NCBI GenBank assembly: GCA_951812945.1
Contig: CATOTB010000001.1
Span: 488,198-552,197, forward strand
Direction of reading: 5' to 3'
DNA: 64,000 nucleotides
DNA from: Candidatus Dadabacteria bacterium
GTDB lineage: Bacteria > Desulfobacterota_D > UBA1144 > Nemesobacterales > Nemesobacteraceae
Every line of letters starts with the position of its first letter. Position 1 is the stretch's first letter. This document shows positions 55,462-63,926 of the stretch, one piece after another. Both the position numbers and the translations under genes were made by a program. The notes under the pieces were generated by a model. The model did not search any database. It was not told the origin of the DNA and saw only the letters and a program-made list of their open reading frames with translations.

Positions 55462-57621
55462 ATGGCTTCTTCTATAACGGACATCTCGAGCAAGAGGGCC
55501 CCTGCCGGTTTTTCCAAAAAGGAAAAATATCTTAACAGGGAGCTTTCTTGGCTTGACTTTAACCTTAGGGTTCTTGAGACGGCGGCAGACAAGAAGGTTC
55601 CGCTTCTTGAGAGGGTGCGCTTTCTCTCCATCTCCGCTAGCAACCTCGATGAGTTCTACATGGTCAGGGTGGCGGGTCTTGCGGGACAGGTTATGGAGGG
55701 AGTTACAGATCGCAGCAAAGACGGCCTTACTGCGTCGCAGCAGCTTGAAGCGATAAGGGAGAAGGTGCACTTCCTGCTTGACAGCCAGTACGAGTGCGAA
55801 AAGGACTTGTTTTCCCTCTGCAAGAAGGCCAAGATCAAGATCGTAACTCCCGAGAAACTCGACCGCTCGGGCGCCAGATGGCTTTCCGAGTGGTTCTCTA
55901 AAAAGCTTTTTCCGGTGCTTACCCCGCTTGCCATAGACCCAGCGCATCCGTTTCCCTTCATACAGAGTGGGAGCCTTGTGTGCGCCGTGCAGCTGAGCCG
56001 CGCCGAGGACGGAAAGCGCATGAAGGGTCTCATAATTCTGCCTTCTCAGGTTGAGCGCTTCATAAGGGTTCCGGGAGGAAAAAAAACCCAATTTGTCCCG
56101 ATCGAGAAGGTCATCGAGCACAACATGAAATCCCTTTTCCCGGGTTTTGAAGTGGATGACAACGGGATCTTCCAGATCACCCGAGACAGCCTTCTTGAGA
56201 TAGACGAAGACGCGGAAGATCTGGTCGAGACGTTTGAAACTGCCCTTAAGCAGCAACGCAGGGGAGGGTCAGTGATCAGGGTTGACGTCAACGCGGACAT
56301 GCCGGATGCGATCGTCAACTTCATAATGGACAAGCTTGAGGCCAGTGACGCGCATTTTTTCAGAATCAAGGGGATGCTCGGGCTTGAAAGCGTGAAACAG
56401 ATAATACTCGATGAGCGAAGCGACCTTCTTTACAAGCGCATGAGTATCCGCTACCCCGAGCGGGTCAGAGAATTCGGAGGCGACGTGATAGCCGCCATAC
56501 GGCAGAAGGATTTCGTCGTTCACCATCCCTACGAGAGTTTCGACGTCGTCGTTGAGTTCCTCAAGCAGGCAGCCGAGGATCCGGCGGTCGTTGCGATCAA
56601 GCAGACGCTTTACCGCACCTCGGAAGACTCTCCGATAGTGAAAAGGCTCATAGAAGCTGCTGAGGCCGGAAAATCCGTAACTGCCATGGTGGAGCTCAAG
56701 GCCCGTTTCGATGAGGAGGCCAACATCCGCTGGGCGCAACGCCTCGAGGATGCGGGAGTCCAGGTTGTGTTCGGATTCATTGACCTTAAAACACACGCCA
56801 AGGTATCGCTGGTAGTGAGAAGGGAAGGTTCTGACATCCGTACCTACACCCACTATGGCACCGGCAACTATCACCCCGTAAACGCCAAGATATACACAGA
56901 CCTCAGCTACTTCACAGCCGACGAGGCGCTCGGCCGCGACGCCGCCAAGCTTTTTAACTACATGACCGGCTATGCCACTCCGAAGAAGATGGAGAGGATA
57001 TTTTTCTCTCCCGTCACGATGCGCCCGAAGGTGCTTGAGCTTATAAGGGACGAGATAGACCATGCGAAGGCCGGCCGCCCCGCGGTGATATGGGCCAAGA
57101 TGAATTCCCTTGTGGACAGCAAGATAATAGACGCGCTTTACGCGGCGAGTTGCGCGGGGGTAAGAATTGAGCTTTTCGTTCGGGGAATATGCTGCCTGAG
57201 GCCCGGGGTGCCGGGGCTCTCCGAGAATATCAGGGTAAAGAGCATTGTGGGGCGTTTCCTTGAGCACAGCAGGGTTATCTGCTTTGGCGCCGGGGAGGGG
57301 CTTCCTTCTAATGCCTGCAAGGTCCTCATCTCGTCTGCGGACTGGATGCCCCGTAATCTTGACCGCAGGGTGGAGTCGCTTGTTCCAATTGAAAACGCCA
57401 CGGTGAAAAAGCAGCTTGTCGAGCAGGTGATGGTTGCTAACCTAAATGATGTCGCGAACAGCTGGGAGATGCTCCCTGATGGTTCTTTCCGCAAGCTAAA
57501 AAGCGATTCGGACAGTTTTTCGGCTCATAAATACTTTATGACCAACCCCAGTCTTTCAGGAAGAGGCAAAGCGCTTGCCAAATCCCGGCCGCAAATGCCG
57601 GCTGAGTTTGTGCAGGAATAA
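55462..57621 (+). CDS. ppk: polyphosphate kinase 1
   Basis: 719 aa; PPK1 N, head and two PLD-like C-terminal domains. Confidence 0.93.
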   Translation: MASSITDISSKRAPAGFSKKEKYLNRELSWLDFNLRVLETAADKKVPLLERVRFLSISASNLDEFYMVRVAGLAGQVMEGVTDRSKDGLTASQQLEAIREKVHFLLDSQYECEKDLFSLCKKAKIKIVTPEKLDRSGARWLSEWFSKKLFPVLTPLAIDPAHPFPFIQSGSLVCAVQLSRAEDGKRMKGLIILPSQVERFIRVPGGKKTQFVPIEKVIEHNMKSLFPGFEVDDNGIFQITRDSLLEIDEDAEDLVETFETALKQQRRGGSVIRVDVNADMPDAIVNFIMDKLEASDAHFFRIKGMLGLESVKQIILDERSDLLYKRMSIRYPERVREFGGDVIAAIRQKDFVVHHPYESFDVVVEFLKQAAEDPAVVAIKQTLYRTSEDSPIVKRLIEAAEAGKSVTAMVELKARFDEEANIRWAQRLEDAGVQVVFGFIDLKTHAKVSLVVRREGSDIRTYTHYGTGNYHPVNAKIYTDLSYFTADEALGRDAAKLFNYMTGYATPKKMERIFFSPVTMRPKVLELIRDEIDHAKAGRPAVIWAKMNSLVDSKIIDALYAASCAGVRIELFVRGICCLRPGVPGLSENIRVKSIVGRFLEHSRVICFGAGEGLPSNACKVLISSADWMPRNLDRRVESLVPIENATVKKQLVEQVMVANLNDVANSWEMLPDGSFRKLKSDSDSFSAHKYFMTNPSLSGRGKALAKSRPQMPAEFVQE

Positions 57622-57625
57622 CTCT

Positions 57626-59154
57626 ATGACAGAAATTTCTTCCTCCGCCGCGCCCTTCGGCAAGGTCGGAACCGCGGCCGTAATAGACGTAGGATCAAAC
57701 TCCATACGTCTTGTGATCTACAAGGGCCCGAGGCGCGCCCCGCTTCCAATACTTGATGAGAAGGTTTCCTGCGGCTTGGGGCGCGGGATGGACTCTCGGG
57801 GCAGGATGTCTCCGCAGAGCATGGATCTCGCCCTGCGAACTGTAAGCCGCTTTGTCGATATCGCGCGCTCGATGAAGGTTTCCGGAATAAAGGCGGTTGC
57901 CACCGCCGCGGTGAGAAACGCCTCAAACGGCTCCGACTTCAAAGAGGCTGTTGAGCAGCAATGCGGGATTTCACTTCGGGTGCTCTCTGGCATGGACGAG
58001 GCAAGGCTTTCCGCGCTCGGTACTCTCTGCGCCATTCCTGACGCTGACGGCGTAATGGGGGATATAGGCGGCGGAAGCCTTGAGTTGGTAGAGATTTGCG
58101 AAGGGGAATTAGGAAACCACGCCACGTTACCGCTTGGCACGATCCCGCTTCTTGAAAGCGGCCTGAGTCCCGTAAAGGCCCGAAAGAAACTGATTGTCCC
58201 CCTCCTTGACGAGCTTTCCTGGCTTGAGAACGCGAAAAAGAAAACCTTCTACGCCGTCGGGGGTTCGTGGCGAGCTCTTGCTAAAAAACACATGGAATCT
58301 GAGGATTATCCGCTTCGCATAGTTCACGGCTACAGTCTTTCGAGATCCAAGGCGGTTGAGATGTCCGGGAGATAGCCGAGATGTCTTCGGGTTCGCTTCA
58401 GGATCTCTGGACCCTGGGGCGAAACAGGGTGGAGTCCGCTCCCTACGCCGCCACGCTTATGAAGAGTCTTCTGAAAAAAACGGGCGTTAACAACCTCATG
58501 TTTTGCACGTACGGGCTTCGGGAGGGATGTATATACGACGATCTTTCCCCGGAGCAGAGTTCTCTGGATCCGCTGGTTGTCATGTGCGAGGAAATCGCCC
58601 TTAAGATGGGAAGGTCCGTTGAGGACGGCAAGGCTTTCTGCAAGTGGATAGAGGCGGCAATTCCAGATAAATACGCCGGAGACTCGAGGCTTAGGCTCGC
58701 CGCATGCCATCTCTCGGACATAGGAATTTCCGAGCATCCGGAATACCGGGCGGAGCAGGTGTTTTTAAGGATACTGCGGATGCCGCTTGTGGGAATCACT
58801 CATCCGGAGAGGGTGAAGGTGGCTCTCTCGGTATCTTCAAGACACGCGGCAATAGGAAACCTGATTCGCCGCTGGGAAGTTTCCGGGTTTCTTTCCAATG
58901 ATGATGTGGAGGAAGCCAGGGTTACGGGGCTTGCTCTTCGTCTGGCTTACACGGTCTCGGGAGGGGTGGCGCGGATTCTTGAGAGTACCAGGCTTGAGAG
59001 AGCCGGGAAAAAGCTTGCTTTGCATATGCCTGGCCAGATTCCTCACCCGGAAACCGTCGGTCGCCGTCTGGGGGCCCTTGCAAAGGCCGTCGGATGCGAT
59101 TATGAGACGATTGCGCGGGATCAAGCTAATGAAACCGCTGGGTGGGGAACTTAG
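57626..59154 (+). CDS. ppx: Ppx/GppA-family exopolyphosphatase, split into two ORFs by a frameshift near 58345-58395 (57626-58375 and 58381-59154)
   Basis: N-terminal actin-like Ppx-GppA domain (VIDVGSNSIRLVIY) in ORF 1; the continuation (…GLREGCIYDDL) and HD-like region in ORF 2 are in another frame. Confidence 0.65.
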
Positions 59155-59203: not shown

Positions 59204-60106
59204 ATGAATTTACTTGACGCAATAGACAACCTGAATATCTGGAAGCAAGGGGACAAAAGAGCTCCTCACAAGCCTCTACTTCTTCTATATGCGCTCGCTG
59301 AACAAGTCCGAAATCCAGACGCTAGGTTTGAGTTTTTTCGTATAGAAGAAAATATTGATCAGTTATTAAATGATTTTTACAAATCATTTCCCGGACGCAG
59401 ACACCATGTAAATGATCCTTTCTGGCGCCTTCGCGGGGATGGAATCTGGAAAGTAGAATCCGACGGAATAATAAGGGAAACCAGTTCAGGAGGTGCTTAT
59501 GTAAGCGATTTAAGGAAATACAATGCTACGGGTTCGTTTTCTAAAGGGGTTGTTCAAGAGATAAGAAATAATCCTGAAGTTGCTTTGCAGGCCGCACGGA
59601 AACTGCTTAATGAACATTTTCCCGAATCATTGCATCAAGATATACTGGAGACTGTAGGATTAGATTACAAGACAATTTCTGCTAAAGAATACATTTCTAA
59701 AAAAACTAAAAGAGACAGTACATTTCGGCAGAAGGTTCTTCACGCCTACGGTTACAGTTGTGCGGTGTGCGGGTTTAATCTGCGCATGAAAACTCTTCCT
59801 GTCGGACTGGAAGCGGCGCATATCAAGTGGCATCAGCATGGAGGACCAGATGCTGAAAACAACGGACTGGCACTATGCGCCACGCACCACAAGTTGCTTG
59901 ACTCGGGGGTGCTGGCACTCTCTGACAATTACCAAATCATTCTTTCAGAGTGGATATTTGATCCCGACCGAAAAAACAGTTTTATACGGGAGCATCATAA
60001 CCGTGAAATCAGATTGCCTAGGAACAGCAACCATTTGCCCAAAATGGATTATATCCGCTGGCACAGAAAAGAAGTGTTTAAAGAACCCGAACTAGTTTTG
60101 ATTTAG
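59204..60106 (+). CDS. McrA-like HNH endonuclease with an uncharacterised N-terminal domain (candidate modification-dependent restriction enzyme)
   Basis: C-terminal HNH: CAVCGF...LEAAHIKWHQHGGPDAENNGLALCATHHKLLDSG; N-terminal domain with KAPHKPLLLLYAL; AT-rich. Confidence 0.65.
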   Translation: MNLLDAIDNLNIWKQGDKRAPHKPLLLLYALAEQVRNPDARFEFFRIEENIDQLLNDFYKSFPGRRHHVNDPFWRLRGDGIWKVESDGIIRETSSGGAYVSDLRKYNATGSFSKGVVQEIRNNPEVALQAARKLLNEHFPESLHQDILETVGLDYKTISAKEYISKKTKRDSTFRQKVLHAYGYSCAVCGFNLRMKTLPVGLEAAHIKWHQHGGPDAENNGLALCATHHKLLDSGVLALSDNYQIILSEWIFDPDRKNSFIREHHNREIRLPRNSNHLPKMDYIRWHRKEVFKEPELVLI

Positions 60107-60539
60107 TAGTACTAAGTGAAATAAATTCTCAAATCTGATTGCGAGATGCGGCAATACGAAGAAAAAGCCTTTTTTGATTCTTGAGATACTGCCAAGATAA
60201 AGTGATAGCAACAATCTGTATGGAACTTTCAACGTCGCAACAATCTCTGGGCATGCCAAGTCTTAATCGTGCATGGTTGCTTGGAATCTTGGCCAACATC
60301 TCTTCATGAGATCGTTGCCGATGTACTGTGATAAAAGGAATTTGAATTGTTCGGTATGTACTTCTTTAAGCTTATTACCAAACGAATGATCAAGGCATGT
60401 GTAGGCAGTTCCTCAAAACACCGAAAAGAACTGACAAAGGAGATGCCGCTTGGAAACAAATGGGTGGTTTAGGGCGGCATTACAGTTGTTGCCACCATGC
60501 TGGAGAGAACCCTGACGAGGCAAACACAGGAGTATTGCG

Positions 60540-61586
60540 ATGAATCGAACGAAAGTATTTCTTGATTCCAACATCTTAATCCAAGCGGGGAAACCACCGG
60601 GTGGGCCGGTCCTCGAACGGTTGAAGCATTTGGTTAATGCCGGTCTTGTAACTGTGCTGACCACGGATCTGACCTGCCGGGAGGTTGCGAAGAAGCATAC
60701 TGAAAACGACTACAATGTCATAAAAGAAGTTGGACAACCTCATTTCCGCAATATAGTTAAGGACATACTGGGCACCAAGTTTCCCAAAATCACTAAAAGC
60801 AAACTGAAAACCAAACTTGCCAAGTCATACAGGCAATCCACCGAGGCTATGCTCACTGAGCTCAACTGCAGAATGCTGAAAATTGACGATATTAAACCTT
60901 CCAAAGTGTTATTTTCTTACACTAACGGAGAGGGGTTCTTTGCTGGAGAGGCAAAAAAGGAACAATTTCCCGACGCTTTTATCTTCGAGTGTCTCAAGGC
61001 CGAAGCGTCAGGGGAAGAATCGATTATAGTTGTCTCGAATGACCGTGATTTCAAAAAACCGGTCGAGGATGAGGCTCACATCTCGCTCGTGAAATCCTTG
61101 CCCGAACTCTTTGAAAGGATGGGTCTTAAAATTGACGCACCCGACATGGAGGGTTTCCTTGAGTGTCATGAGGGTAAGTTGTTTGAAGCGGTCAACGAAG
61201 AGTTGAATTGCTGGGGATTCGTTGGAGATGTTCCAGACTCCGAGATTGAAGAGACAACAGTAACTGATGTGAGAGTAATTAAACTCGCAAGTTTCGGGTC
61301 GACTGAGAAAAGAGGCTCAATTCTGATAGTCGGTCGTCTCCATGTGAGAGCGGAGATTTCATATGCCCATCCGGACTGGGATACCGCAATGTACAGCGAC
61401 GACGATATCCTTGTCTGGATTAATGATGAGCGCGTGAGTGGCGAGACTGAAGTCGGCTTCAATGTGGATGTGTCGATGTCGGTAGCGGTGGATAAAAACG
61501 ACAATCCCAAGAGCATTGAAGAACTGCGTTTCCTAAACGGCGACTTTCAGCATATCGAGCTCCACAGTGATCATTATCACGATTAG
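60540..61586 (+). CDS. PIN-like nuclease domain protein with C-terminal domain of unknown function
   Basis: PIN signature acidic residues (VFLDSNILI ... IVVSNDRDF); GGAG RBS. Confidence 0.55.
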   Translation: MNRTKVFLDSNILIQAGKPPGGPVLERLKHLVNAGLVTVLTTDLTCREVAKKHTENDYNVIKEVGQPHFRNIVKDILGTKFPKITKSKLKTKLAKSYRQSTEAMLTELNCRMLKIDDIKPSKVLFSYTNGEGFFAGEAKKEQFPDAFIFECLKAEASGEESIIVVSNDRDFKKPVEDEAHISLVKSLPELFERMGLKIDAPDMEGFLECHEGKLFEAVNEELNCWGFVGDVPDSEIEETTVTDVRVIKLASFGSTEKRGSILIVGRLHVRAEISYAHPDWDTAMYSDDDILVWINDERVSGETEVGFNVDVSMSVAVDKNDNPKSIEELRFLNGDFQHIELHSDHYHD

Positions 61587-61642: not shown

Positions 61643-62293
61643 ATGAACAGGGTAAAATCCTCTGGATTCCAGGTTGAGGTATGGATTAACATGTTGCCCG
61701 ACTTTCCTAAGATAAAGAAAGACATCCATAAGAAATTGCTTATCCCATATGCCAAGCACAAGAGGGCATCACGTCTGGGGATTTTGAACCAAATGACCTT
61801 AATAAAAGTGCATGAAGGCAATAATAGTCGGATCCTCAGAAGCGACAAAACTCAAGATACGGCGAGACCGAATGATATTTCAGGAAGCTTTTCATATGAA
61901 CTTTCCGATATAAAAGATATGACGATAGAAGATGTTTTTAGGAATATAGACGATGCAACGGAAGAGCTTACTATTAAACTGATTGATCATGTCGTGAATA
62001 AAGTCGAAACCGTCTGCGAAGAAACGGGCAACGTACTAAATCTTAACAACAAGAAATTTACCGCCGTTCACTACCTTGAACTTCTTGAAAAACTTGAAAT
62101 AAGATTCGATTGTAACGGAGATCCGATTTTGCCGGATGCTCTTGTGGGTGCTTCACTTGATCCAAAGGCTATAAAAGAAGAGATGCAAAAAACACAAAAG
62201 GATGAAACGCTTCGAAAAAGATTTGCCGAAATCATAAGCAAGAAAAGAGAAGAGCATAATGCTAGAGAGGGTAATAGAGAACTGGTTAGATAA
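61643..62293 (+). CDS. hypothetical protein (probable start ATG 61691)
   Basis: ORF overlapping the downstream gene by 35 nt; no family I recognise. Confidence 0.4.
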   Translation: MNRVKSSGFQVEVWINMLPDFPKIKKDIHKKLLIPYAKHKRASRLGILNQMTLIKVHEGNNSRILRSDKTQDTARPNDISGSFSYELSDIKDMTIEDVFRNIDDATEELTIKLIDHVVNKVETVCEETGNVLNLNNKKFTAVHYLELLEKLEIRFDCNGDPILPDALVGASLDPKAIKEEMQKTQKDETLRKRFAEIISKKREEHNAREGNRELVR

Positions 62294-63926
62294 CGTGACG
62301 GAAAGATCGTTTGAGAACTCTTTTTGTCACATGCTTGCTTACCGAGGCTACACCGTTTTACACAAGACCAGGCATACCGGACTGGAAATGGGCAAGGATG
62401 TAATTGCCGTAGCGGAAGACGGCGTCCCTTGTGTTTTTCAGTTGAAAACCGCGGTGAACGGAACCATAAAACAGCGATACTGGACTGATAACATACAGAA
62501 TCAAGTTATTACGATGATCAATACCAAACCGATCCATCCAGCTTTGAAAGACTATAGCCACCACAGATCTTATTTTGTTACGAACGGAAAAATAGAAGAA
62601 GAGGTAACGCGGCAGATAGATGATTTAAACAGAAGGTTTGAAGCTCAGGGATGTGGACATAAAAAATTGGAAGTAATTGTCAAAGGTCAGTTGTCGGCAT
62701 GGGCAAAAGAACTGGAAACGGACTTGTGGCCGTCGGAACTGACAGACGTTCGGCTGCTTCTTGAACTCTTTCTTGAAGATGGAAAAGATGTTCTTGATAA
62801 AGCAAAGCTGTCCCGGCTTCTTGAGGCCTGCGTTAATTTTGAAAGCCATCCGAATAAAAAGGAGTCGAAAAGAGCAGTCTCGAGTTTAGCCCTCTTAAAC
62901 GCTGTTGCCGTAAGCAACTATTCGAACTCGAAGAACTACGTTGCCGAGATTGAAGCATGGGTGATCTACATGTCTTATTTATTTGCTTATGCTGAAAAAT
63001 GGAAAATTGGAAAGAAAATCTGGTCTGAAGAATTTAACATTGCGAAGAATTATATTGGTCAGCTTCTGGGAGAGCTTTATAAGGAAGTAAAATCCTCCAA
63101 ATTTTATATCGAGGGTGACCCAAGCACAGAACCATTTCTTATTTACCCTATACGGATTACATACTTGATTTCTCTTATGAGCATTTTCTCTTTATGGGCT
63201 GAATGTGAAAATTTTGACGACAATGAAGAAATAAATGAGTTCTGCAGGGAGTTCTGTTTAAAAAACAAAGACTATATGCTTTTGTGGGGAGAGGCCGCTG
63301 TACCTCAGTACTTATCATTCTACTGGTATTACAGCAAAATTGACGCAACCATCTCACCCTCTAATTTCTTATTAGGTGCTATTGGACAAATTATTGCGTT
63401 AAACAAGCCCAAGAACTTGCCAAAACAAGAAAATGTTTTCAGGGGAAACGAACACTTGTACCTTCCGCAAAACGATGGGATAGCGAACGCTTATTACAAT
63501 TCTAATGAATTATTGCCATATCTGCTCGGAATAAACGATGAACCGATTGAGGATCATTTTTTAGAACGCTCCCAAACTTTATGGGCTTTAATTGAGATTT
63601 ACGTCCGCTTGAATTTTCAAAGACCGGTATTCATGTTCTGGAAAGATGCAACATACATTAGCGAGGTTGAATTCAAGCCCAAATACAAATGGCATTTCTT
63701 TAGATGGAAAAATGATGAGGGAGAAGTGGTAGAAGAACAGAAAAATGGGCAAAAATGGCCTGAATTAAGAAAGCAAGTTCAAGAAATTGATTACAGGAAT
63801 ATTCCAGAAAAATTCAAGAAAGAACCTATATTGTTTTTGTTGTTTTTATGTGTATATCCCCATCGCATCTCTACTTCAATTGTGAAATGGCTTGATAGCG
63901 AAATCCGTGAACAAGAAACTGATTAG
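62259..63926 (+). CDS. protein with N-terminal Mrr-like PD-(D/E)xK nuclease domain and about 450-aa C-terminal region of unknown function
   Basis: FENSFCHMLAYRGYTVLHKTRHTGLEMGKDVIAVAEDGVPCVFQLK fits the Mrr_cat pattern (D...D/E-x-K as GKDVIA...FQLK); remainder has no family I recognise. Confidence 0.5.
   Translation: MLERVIENWLDNVTERSFENSFCHMLAYRGYTVLHKTRHTGLEMGKDVIAVAEDGVPCVFQLKTAVNGTIKQRYWTDNIQNQVITMINTKPIHPALKDYSHHRSYFVTNGKIEEEVTRQIDDLNRRFEAQGCGHKKLEVIVKGQLSAWAKELETDLWPSELTDVRLLLELFLEDGKDVLDKAKLSRLLEACVNFESHPNKKESKRAVSSLALLNAVAVSNYSNSKNYVAEIEAWVIYMSYLFAYAEKWKIGKKIWSEEFNIAKNYIGQLLGELYKEVKSSKFYIEGDPSTEPFLIYPIRITYLISLMSIFSLWAECENFDDNEEINEFCREFCLKNKDYMLLWGEAAVPQYLSFYWYYSKIDATISPSNFLLGAIGQIIALNKPKNLPKQENVFRGNEHLYLPQNDGIANAYYNSNELLPYLLGINDEPIEDHFLERSQTLWALIEIYVRLNFQRPVFMFWKDATYISEVEFKPKYKWHFFRWKNDEGEVVEEQKNGQKWPELRKQVQEIDYRNIPEKFKKEPILFLLFLCVYPHRISTSIVKWLDSEIREQETD

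Follow-up and report, generated by a model that had tools for sequence, protein, structure and literature searches.

The DUF4935 proteins, now classified in Pfam as the PIN_12 family (PF16289), were described by Matelska et al. (2017; PMC5499597) as a group of ∼350-residue proteins of unknown function, whose genes are usually monocistronic. According to this description, they combine an N-terminal PIN domain of the VapC group, in which a helical insert follows S2 and the active site comprises four to five residues, with an α/β C-terminal region that has no known homologs. A member of the same family is encoded by brc24, or Cosus, a class 1 mobile-integron cassette, which alone provides Escherichia coli with complete resistance to phage T7 at an 11% fitness cost and could be introduced into Pseudomonas aeruginosa after a switch to a weaker promoter (bioRxiv 10.1101/2024.07.02.601719). 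Here we describe a PIN_12 gene from a 64,000-nt stretch of a Candidatus Dadabacteria genome (contig CATOTB010000001.1, positions 488,198–552,197), which is hereafter called the window. The gene encodes a protein of 348 aa, which we consider a rather probable single-polypeptide, horizontally mobile anti-phage nuclease working like the distantly related Cosus. It belongs to a previously catalogued family as an ordinary member and is not a new kind of system; new with respect to the 2017 description are the fold class of the C-terminal domain (the tail), its exclusive association with PIN_12, its extreme acidity, and the defense-island context of the family.

The PIN_12 domain and its conserved residues

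Residues 6–171 of the 348-aa protein match the PIN_12 profile over its entire length (profile positions 1–172 of 172; E = 2.6e-28), with a score of 100 bits against a gathering threshold of 32 bits. In the structure model, the N-terminal half is predicted to form a three-layer α/β/α fold with a central parallel sheet that can be superimposed on solved PIN domains, and its closest folds are the VapC toxins, that is, PIN domains of the VapC group. A helical insert of ∼65 residues (∼43–107) follows strand 2 of the PIN domain, and no signal peptide or membrane feature is seen in the model of the protein.

The conservation of individual residues was analyzed in a MAFFT alignment of 17 sequences, which represent the family of the 348-aa protein itself, its relatives with 30–40% identity, the plasmid-encoded relatives from Rahnella and Pantoea with 23% identity, and the Cosus family. 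Residues D9, T42-D43, E48, Y127, F134, K139-K140, F143-P144-D145-A146, S166 and D168 are invariant or nearly so in this alignment, and D170 is invariant inside the close family. Judged by these positions, the putative catalytic acidic set of the PIN domain is complete and is accompanied by a family-specific KKxxFPDA motif. The first-pass annotation, made from the letters and a list of open reading frames (ORFs), had proposed a PIN-like domain in this ORF and had pointed to DUF4935 as a candidate family. Its ORF and the motifs that it quoted are found where it placed them (D9 in VFLDSNILI, D168 and D170 in IVVSNDRDF, and HPDWD...HSDHYHD in the C-terminal half); the predicted acidic positions, D9, D43/E48, D145 and D168, proved to be conserved in all compared subfamilies, the DUF4935 suggestion holds under the current Pfam name, and the PIN fold is supported by both the Pfam profile and the structure model.

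By analogy with the VapC group, the PIN domain is probably a Mg2+/Mn2+-dependent endonuclease that most likely acts on RNA. The choice of RNA, or single-stranded nucleic acid, as the presumed target is based on this analogy and on domain fusions among the relatives of Cosus. Four of these relatives (P0217, P0219, P0222 and P0230), which are PIN_12 proteins of 462–467 aa, possess an N-terminal cold-shock domain (PF00313), and such fusions hint at an RNA or single-stranded DNA substrate.

The acidic C-terminal domain

The tail (residues ∼197–348) is confidently predicted as an independent fold, in which two helices and a curved antiparallel sheet form an α+β roll of the cystatin/NTF2-like type. 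It is unmatched by any of the sequence libraries searched (Pfam, PADLOC, NCBIfam, PDB and PHROGs), so that the C-terminal half, left unassigned at first pass, stays without a library assignment. In the search of PDB sequences, a match of residues 280–340 to the poxvirus A26 protein (E = 0.025) is weak and implausible and was judged to be due to chance. A member of the Cosus family, P0187, is labelled 'NTF2 superfamily protein' by JGI, which agrees with the fold class predicted for the tail of the 348-aa protein.

The tail carries a net charge of −22 in the protein analyzed here and between −22 and −37 in each subfamily examined, Cosus included. The tails have a pI of ∼4.1 and an Asp+Glu content of 22–29%, and the pI of the PIN halves ranges from 4.6 to 8.9. 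Sequence identity within the family is lower in the tail (50%) than in the PIN half (62%), and the family motifs of the tail include W225, D230, HPDWD (277–281) and YSDDD at positions 285–289 (family consensus YDSEDK).

By a phmmer search with the tail only against 1.84 billion representative proteins, we obtained 83 matches; nearly all of the full-length ones are proteins of 340–355 aa with the domain located at ∼200–345. PIN_12 is present in 48 of the 58 scanned matches, and the remainder are short fragments or noise; therefore, the tail domain is confined to PIN_12 proteins. We conclude that the tail is an autonomous, PIN_12-exclusive, hyper-acidic domain. The gene had initially been presented as a fusion of a PIN-like domain with an unknown domain. 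The two domains are indeed found in one protein, but the novelty was overstated: the tail is found throughout the family as the second half of its proteins, and this architecture is the standard one, since it was described for DUF4935 in 2017 (PMC5499597).

Taxonomic distribution and genomic context

A word-indexed search identified 278 homologs of the 348-aa protein. Among the 120 matches listed, the proteins are 344–385 aa long, cover 94–100% of the query and are 50–82% identical to it, with the exception of a 234-aa fragment and of a 100% identical protein (P0001), whose 90% cluster includes a sequence from a Candidatus Dadabacteria metagenome-assembled genome. Related genes are patchily distributed among Alpha-, Beta- and Gammaproteobacteria, Thermodesulfobacteriota, Dehalococcoidia, Dadabacteria and others. 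PADLOC, NCBIfam and PHROGs contain no family for the 348-aa protein.

The GC content is 0.37–0.45 from ∼59.1 kb to the end of the window, compared with 0.54–0.62 in the preceding 5 kb, and the gene thus belongs to a horizontally acquired island. The preceding 5 kb hold CHAD, ppk1 and ppx, the island being inserted after ppk-ppx. The first gene of the island, located directly after ppx, encodes a phosphorothioate-DNA-dependent HNH type IV restriction endonuclease (SBD-HNH, ScoMcrA-like; NF045808, E = 1.8e-96).

All-against-all clustering of the ORFs in the flanks of 44 loci revealed no neighbor that is conserved across clades. Conserved neighbors are restricted to two near-clonal mobile elements, a sphingomonad plasmid element and a Bradyrhizobium/Afipia element, and the three genes that flank the window copy have no homolog in any related locus. 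The early description of a stand-alone gene in a defense island is in line with this lack of a conserved partner and with the phosphorothioate-dependent HNH enzyme upstream.

The neighborhoods of the homologs are consistently defense-rich. The homolog with 82% identity is adjoined by a type I/IIG restriction-modification system, whereas those with 67–69% identity are adjoined by CBASS, IetAS, Mrr-nSTAND and SIR2; AbiEi is also found among the neighbors of homologs. Among 149 flanking genes surveyed in 27 non-redundant loci, we found IetAS (3 loci), short pAgo with SIR2 (2 loci), Mrr/type IV enzymes, type I and type II methyltransferases, MADS and several PADLOC candidate systems, as well as a GTPase-associated system, PLD nucleases and transposases.

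Conjugative plasmids from Sphingobium and Rhizorhabdus harbor identical copies of PIN_12 genes. One allele, with identical match statistics, occurs in a conserved element common to many sphingomonad genera (L008–L018) and in four plasmid hits (H1–H4); the conjugative plasmids with this element include that of Rhizorhabdus wittichii RW1 (CP000700). A second allele is located in the other conserved element (L024–L038) of Bradyrhizobium, Afipia and Hyphomicrobiaceae, and Bradyrhizobium sp. RDM12 possesses three copies (L034, L038 and L044). No copy encoded in phage genomes was found. An integron-cassette nature of the window copy was rejected: the ORF is not followed directly by an attC site, and the gap of only 56 nt between its stop codon and the next gene contains no inverted repeat.

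Homology of the PIN half to Cosus

The Cosus protein was traced from the cassette sequence in the supplementary Table S3 of the Cosus study, together with the sequences of the mutagenesis primers. It corresponds to a 382-aa 'DUF4935 domain-containing protein' of Providencia stuartii (P0121), which matches PIN_12 with E = 5.6e-33. The PIN halves of the two proteins are homologous (hhalign probability 94.9%, E = 4e-8; BLASTP E = 6e-7). Residues D14, D47, E52, D153 and D177 of Cosus are equivalent to D9, D43, E48, D145 and D168 of the protein described here, and the KKxxFPDA motif can also be read in the Cosus mutagenesis primers. The two tails are alike in their length, β-rich character and extreme acidity, and possibly share a DSxDK motif.

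Functional interpretation

A Cosus-like role in anti-phage defense is the best-supported interpretation of the gene, and none of the rival explanations is favored over it. The first-pass annotation had noted that stand-alone PIN-like fusions in defense islands are often abortive-infection effectors; for the 348-aa protein this would be a possible role, with the T7 resistance given by the distant Cosus as its single experimental support. In the proposed mechanism, the PIN nuclease would cut phage or host transcripts, tRNA or rRNA, and phage replication would stop. The faster-evolving acidic tail would serve as the regulatory part, so that the nuclease is active only during infection; this is the weakest step of the mechanism. 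The tail might block the nuclease groove of its own polypeptide as an inhibitor or pseudo-substrate, act as a hub for oligomerization, or sense a basic protein of the phage.

Several points weigh against a Cosus-like defense function. Of the two proteins, Cosus is the only one with experimental data on function, and the identity of the PIN halves is only ∼27%. The tails give an hhalign probability of 0.5% with narrow profiles and of 1.2% with broader, independently aligned profiles, and in a transitive BLAST analysis the bridging proteins from Rahnella and Pantoea are linked to the family of the 348-aa protein via the tail and to Cosus by the PIN half only. As these three routes to tail homology are non-significant, the global MAFFT alignment is not taken as proof of it. 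Protection by Cosus drops >1e5-fold with each of the mutations T12A, D14A and D96A (bioRxiv 10.1101/2024.07.02.601719); T12 corresponds to F7 here, and D96 is located in an 11-residue insertion of Cosus that is absent from the protein described here. These are the three mutants named as damaging among the 11 made, a set that also included D47A, D153A and D177A, and thus the classical four-acid mechanism is not established even for Cosus. Moreover, an evolved escape mutation was mapped to gp12, a phage tail protein, from which the authors propose an interference with injection (bioRxiv 10.1101/2024.07.02.601719); this hint points away from nuclease action. The roles listed above for the acidic tail are speculation from its charge, fold and evolutionary rate. 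The association with defense islands is guilt by association, made without a formal background control, and no model of PADLOC-DB 2.0.0 matches the 348-aa protein.

Among the alternatives, the one that survives best, although we regard it as unlikely, is a selfish VapC-like toxin for addiction or stabilization, in which the acidic tail would be a fused cis-antitoxin and the benefit would be the maintenance of a plasmid or island. The nearest folds of the PIN domain are indeed VapC toxins, copies of the gene are carried by conjugative plasmids and have transposases and integrases as neighbors, strong expression of Cosus is costly or toxic, and a basic groove for nucleic acid could be masked by the acidic tail. 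However, addiction is based on the differential degradation of the antitoxin once the gene has been lost, which is impossible for a covalently fused one, and the locus contains no adjacent antitoxin ORF, no tandem-repeat RNA antitoxin and no Rfam match. In addition, the neighbors of the homologs are mostly defense genes, and Cosus, the sole tested member of the family, gives phage resistance.

Somewhat less probable again is a PIN domain that mainly binds, its nuclease activity being dispensable, in a protein that blocks an early step such as genome entry or sequesters a phage component via the acidic domain. Such a role would fit the suggested interference with injection in the gp12 escaper, as well as the absence of the canonical-site mutants D153A and D177A from the 3 of 11 that were reported as damaging. 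In its charge, the hyper-acidic domain is also similar to nucleic-acid-mimic proteins. On the other hand, the four acidic positions and the KKxxFPDA motif are invariant up to Cosus at ∼25% overall identity, which is hard to explain without catalysis; the D14A substitution, equivalent to D9 here, cripples Cosus, and the structure model is devoid of a signal peptide or membrane feature. Finally, a housekeeping or stress-related host nuclease for RNA processing or for repair, apart from any conflict with mobile elements, is very improbable given the patchy taxonomic distribution without syntenic conservation, the location in a low-GC island that follows ppk-ppx, the near-identical copies on plasmids of different genera, and the presence of several copies in one genome.

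The Cosus-like defense interpretation has a bolder version, which we regard as a long shot. The tail would be a built-in nucleic-acid mimic that occupies the substrate groove as a covalent 'antitoxin' and is pulled off by a basic nucleic-acid-binding phage protein; a single polypeptide would then unite sensor, inhibitor and effector, and PIN_12 would be a large one-gene immune superfamily, of which Cosus is the first sampled branch. If the subfamily described here does defend its hosts like Cosus, PIN_12/DUF4935 would be a widespread one-gene immune family that is missing from PADLOC-DB 2.0.0 and is disseminated by conjugative plasmids and integrons. The present work ties an uncharacterized Pfam family to an experimentally validated defense gene, and its practical value is modest.

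Gene coordinates and adjacent genes

The features of the PIN_12 gene and the genes around it are listed in Table 1.

Table 1. Coordinates of the PIN_12 gene, its domains and motifs, and the adjacent ORFs (positions in the window).
Feature	Position	Strand	Remarks
ppx, first ORF	57575-58375	+	left island edge
ppx, second ORF	58381-59154	+	left island edge
HNH type IV restriction endonuclease	59204..60106	+	first island gene
Upstream spacer	60107-60539		433 nt
48-aa ORF	60397-60543	+	basic product
Shine-Dalgarno sequence AGGAG	60528..60532	+	7 nt 5' of ATG; read from sequence
PIN_12/DUF4935 family gene	60540..61586	+	complete, 348 aa, stop codon included; from the ORF listing
PIN domain, N-terminal	60540..61127	+	residues 1-196; Pfam match at residues 6-171
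D9 codon	60564..60566	+	first putative catalytic Asp, located where strand 1 ends; counterpart of Cosus D14; invariant 17/17
T42-D43...E48 codons (TTDLTCRE)	60663..60683	+	second acidic PIN position; T42 and E48 17/17, D43 16/17
K139-K140-E-Q-F143-P144-D145-A146 codons (KKxxFPDA motif)	60954..60977	+	third acidic position; six named residues 17/17
S166-N-D168-R-D170 codons (SNDRD)	61035..61049	+	fourth acidic position, after strand 4; D168 invariant between subfamilies
C-terminal domain	61128..61583	+	residues 197-348; predicted cystatin/NTF2-like roll; net charge -22, pI 4.4
216-aa gene	61643-62293	+	first gene of downstream pair
555-aa gene	62259-63926	+	second gene of downstream pair

At the left edge of the island, ppx is divided between two ORFs in different frames. 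The Ppx-GppA domain of the first ORF ends at profile position 218 of 285, and the second ORF corresponds to Ppx_C; the division is due either to a frameshift, which would make ppx a pseudogene, or to an error in the assembly. The spacer upstream of the PIN_12 gene contains only short, unconserved ORFs, none of them an antitoxin ORF, and neither tandem repeats nor Rfam matches were found in it. A type II VapBC module was rejected, as there is no small conserved antitoxin gene on the 5' side and no neighbor family common across clades, and so was a type III (ToxIN-like) module, for lack of upstream tandem RNA antitoxin repeats and of an Rfam match. The minus strand of the spacer was suspected to hold a decayed recombinase gene, but this candidate has no Pfam support and was dropped. 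The 48-aa basic ORF overlaps the start codon of the PIN_12 gene as ATGA. It is probably not a gene, since it has no counterpart 5' of the closest homolog (L046), where a 783-aa gene abuts the PIN_12 gene in its place.

Downstream of the PIN_12 gene, the 216-aa and 555-aa genes form a conserved pair with a 35-nt overlap, and neither is assigned to a family by Pfam, PADLOC, NCBIfam or PHROG. The sole signal comes from the 555-aa protein, which has 423 homologs of ∼535–555 aa, and consists of a weak Mrr_cat-like N-terminus (E = 0.04). The pair recurs with the same overlap in L052 (93% identity), L053 (43%) and L054 (41%, Poribacteria), where it is located near genes for a type ISP restriction-modification enzyme, an SLFN/AlbA ATPase, SocA_Panacea and PIN proteins, but never with PIN_12. 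We propose it as a candidate for an unannotated defense module. An operon of the PIN_12 gene with these two genes was rejected, as the pair recurs without PIN_12 and PIN_12 recurs without the pair. Near the pair in L052 (12253-17668), there is also a gene for a protein of >1900 aa with HTH_upst_double_PIN and PIN-TPR-GreABC domains, which is another PIN-based conflict system.

Comparison with known systems

The 348-aa protein agrees in full with the DUF4935/PIN_12 family as defined previously, and its architecture is identical (PMC5499597). The predicted fold class of its tail is common to the cystatin- and NTF2-like α+β roll domains of cystatins, NTF2, the CaMKII hub and VirB8. The VapC toxins of type II VapBC systems are ∼130–150 aa long and are always accompanied by an upstream VapB antitoxin; in contrast, the protein described here is 348 aa long, contains an additional domain besides the ∼65-residue helical insert, and lacks an antitoxin gene. 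Cosus differs from it by extra insertions, one of which contains D96, and by being an integron cassette, unlike the gene in the window. Both are PIN_12 proteins in which a PIN domain of ∼200 aa with a helical insert is followed by a hyper-acidic, β-rich tail of 150–180 aa, and both are encoded by a single gene without a partner.
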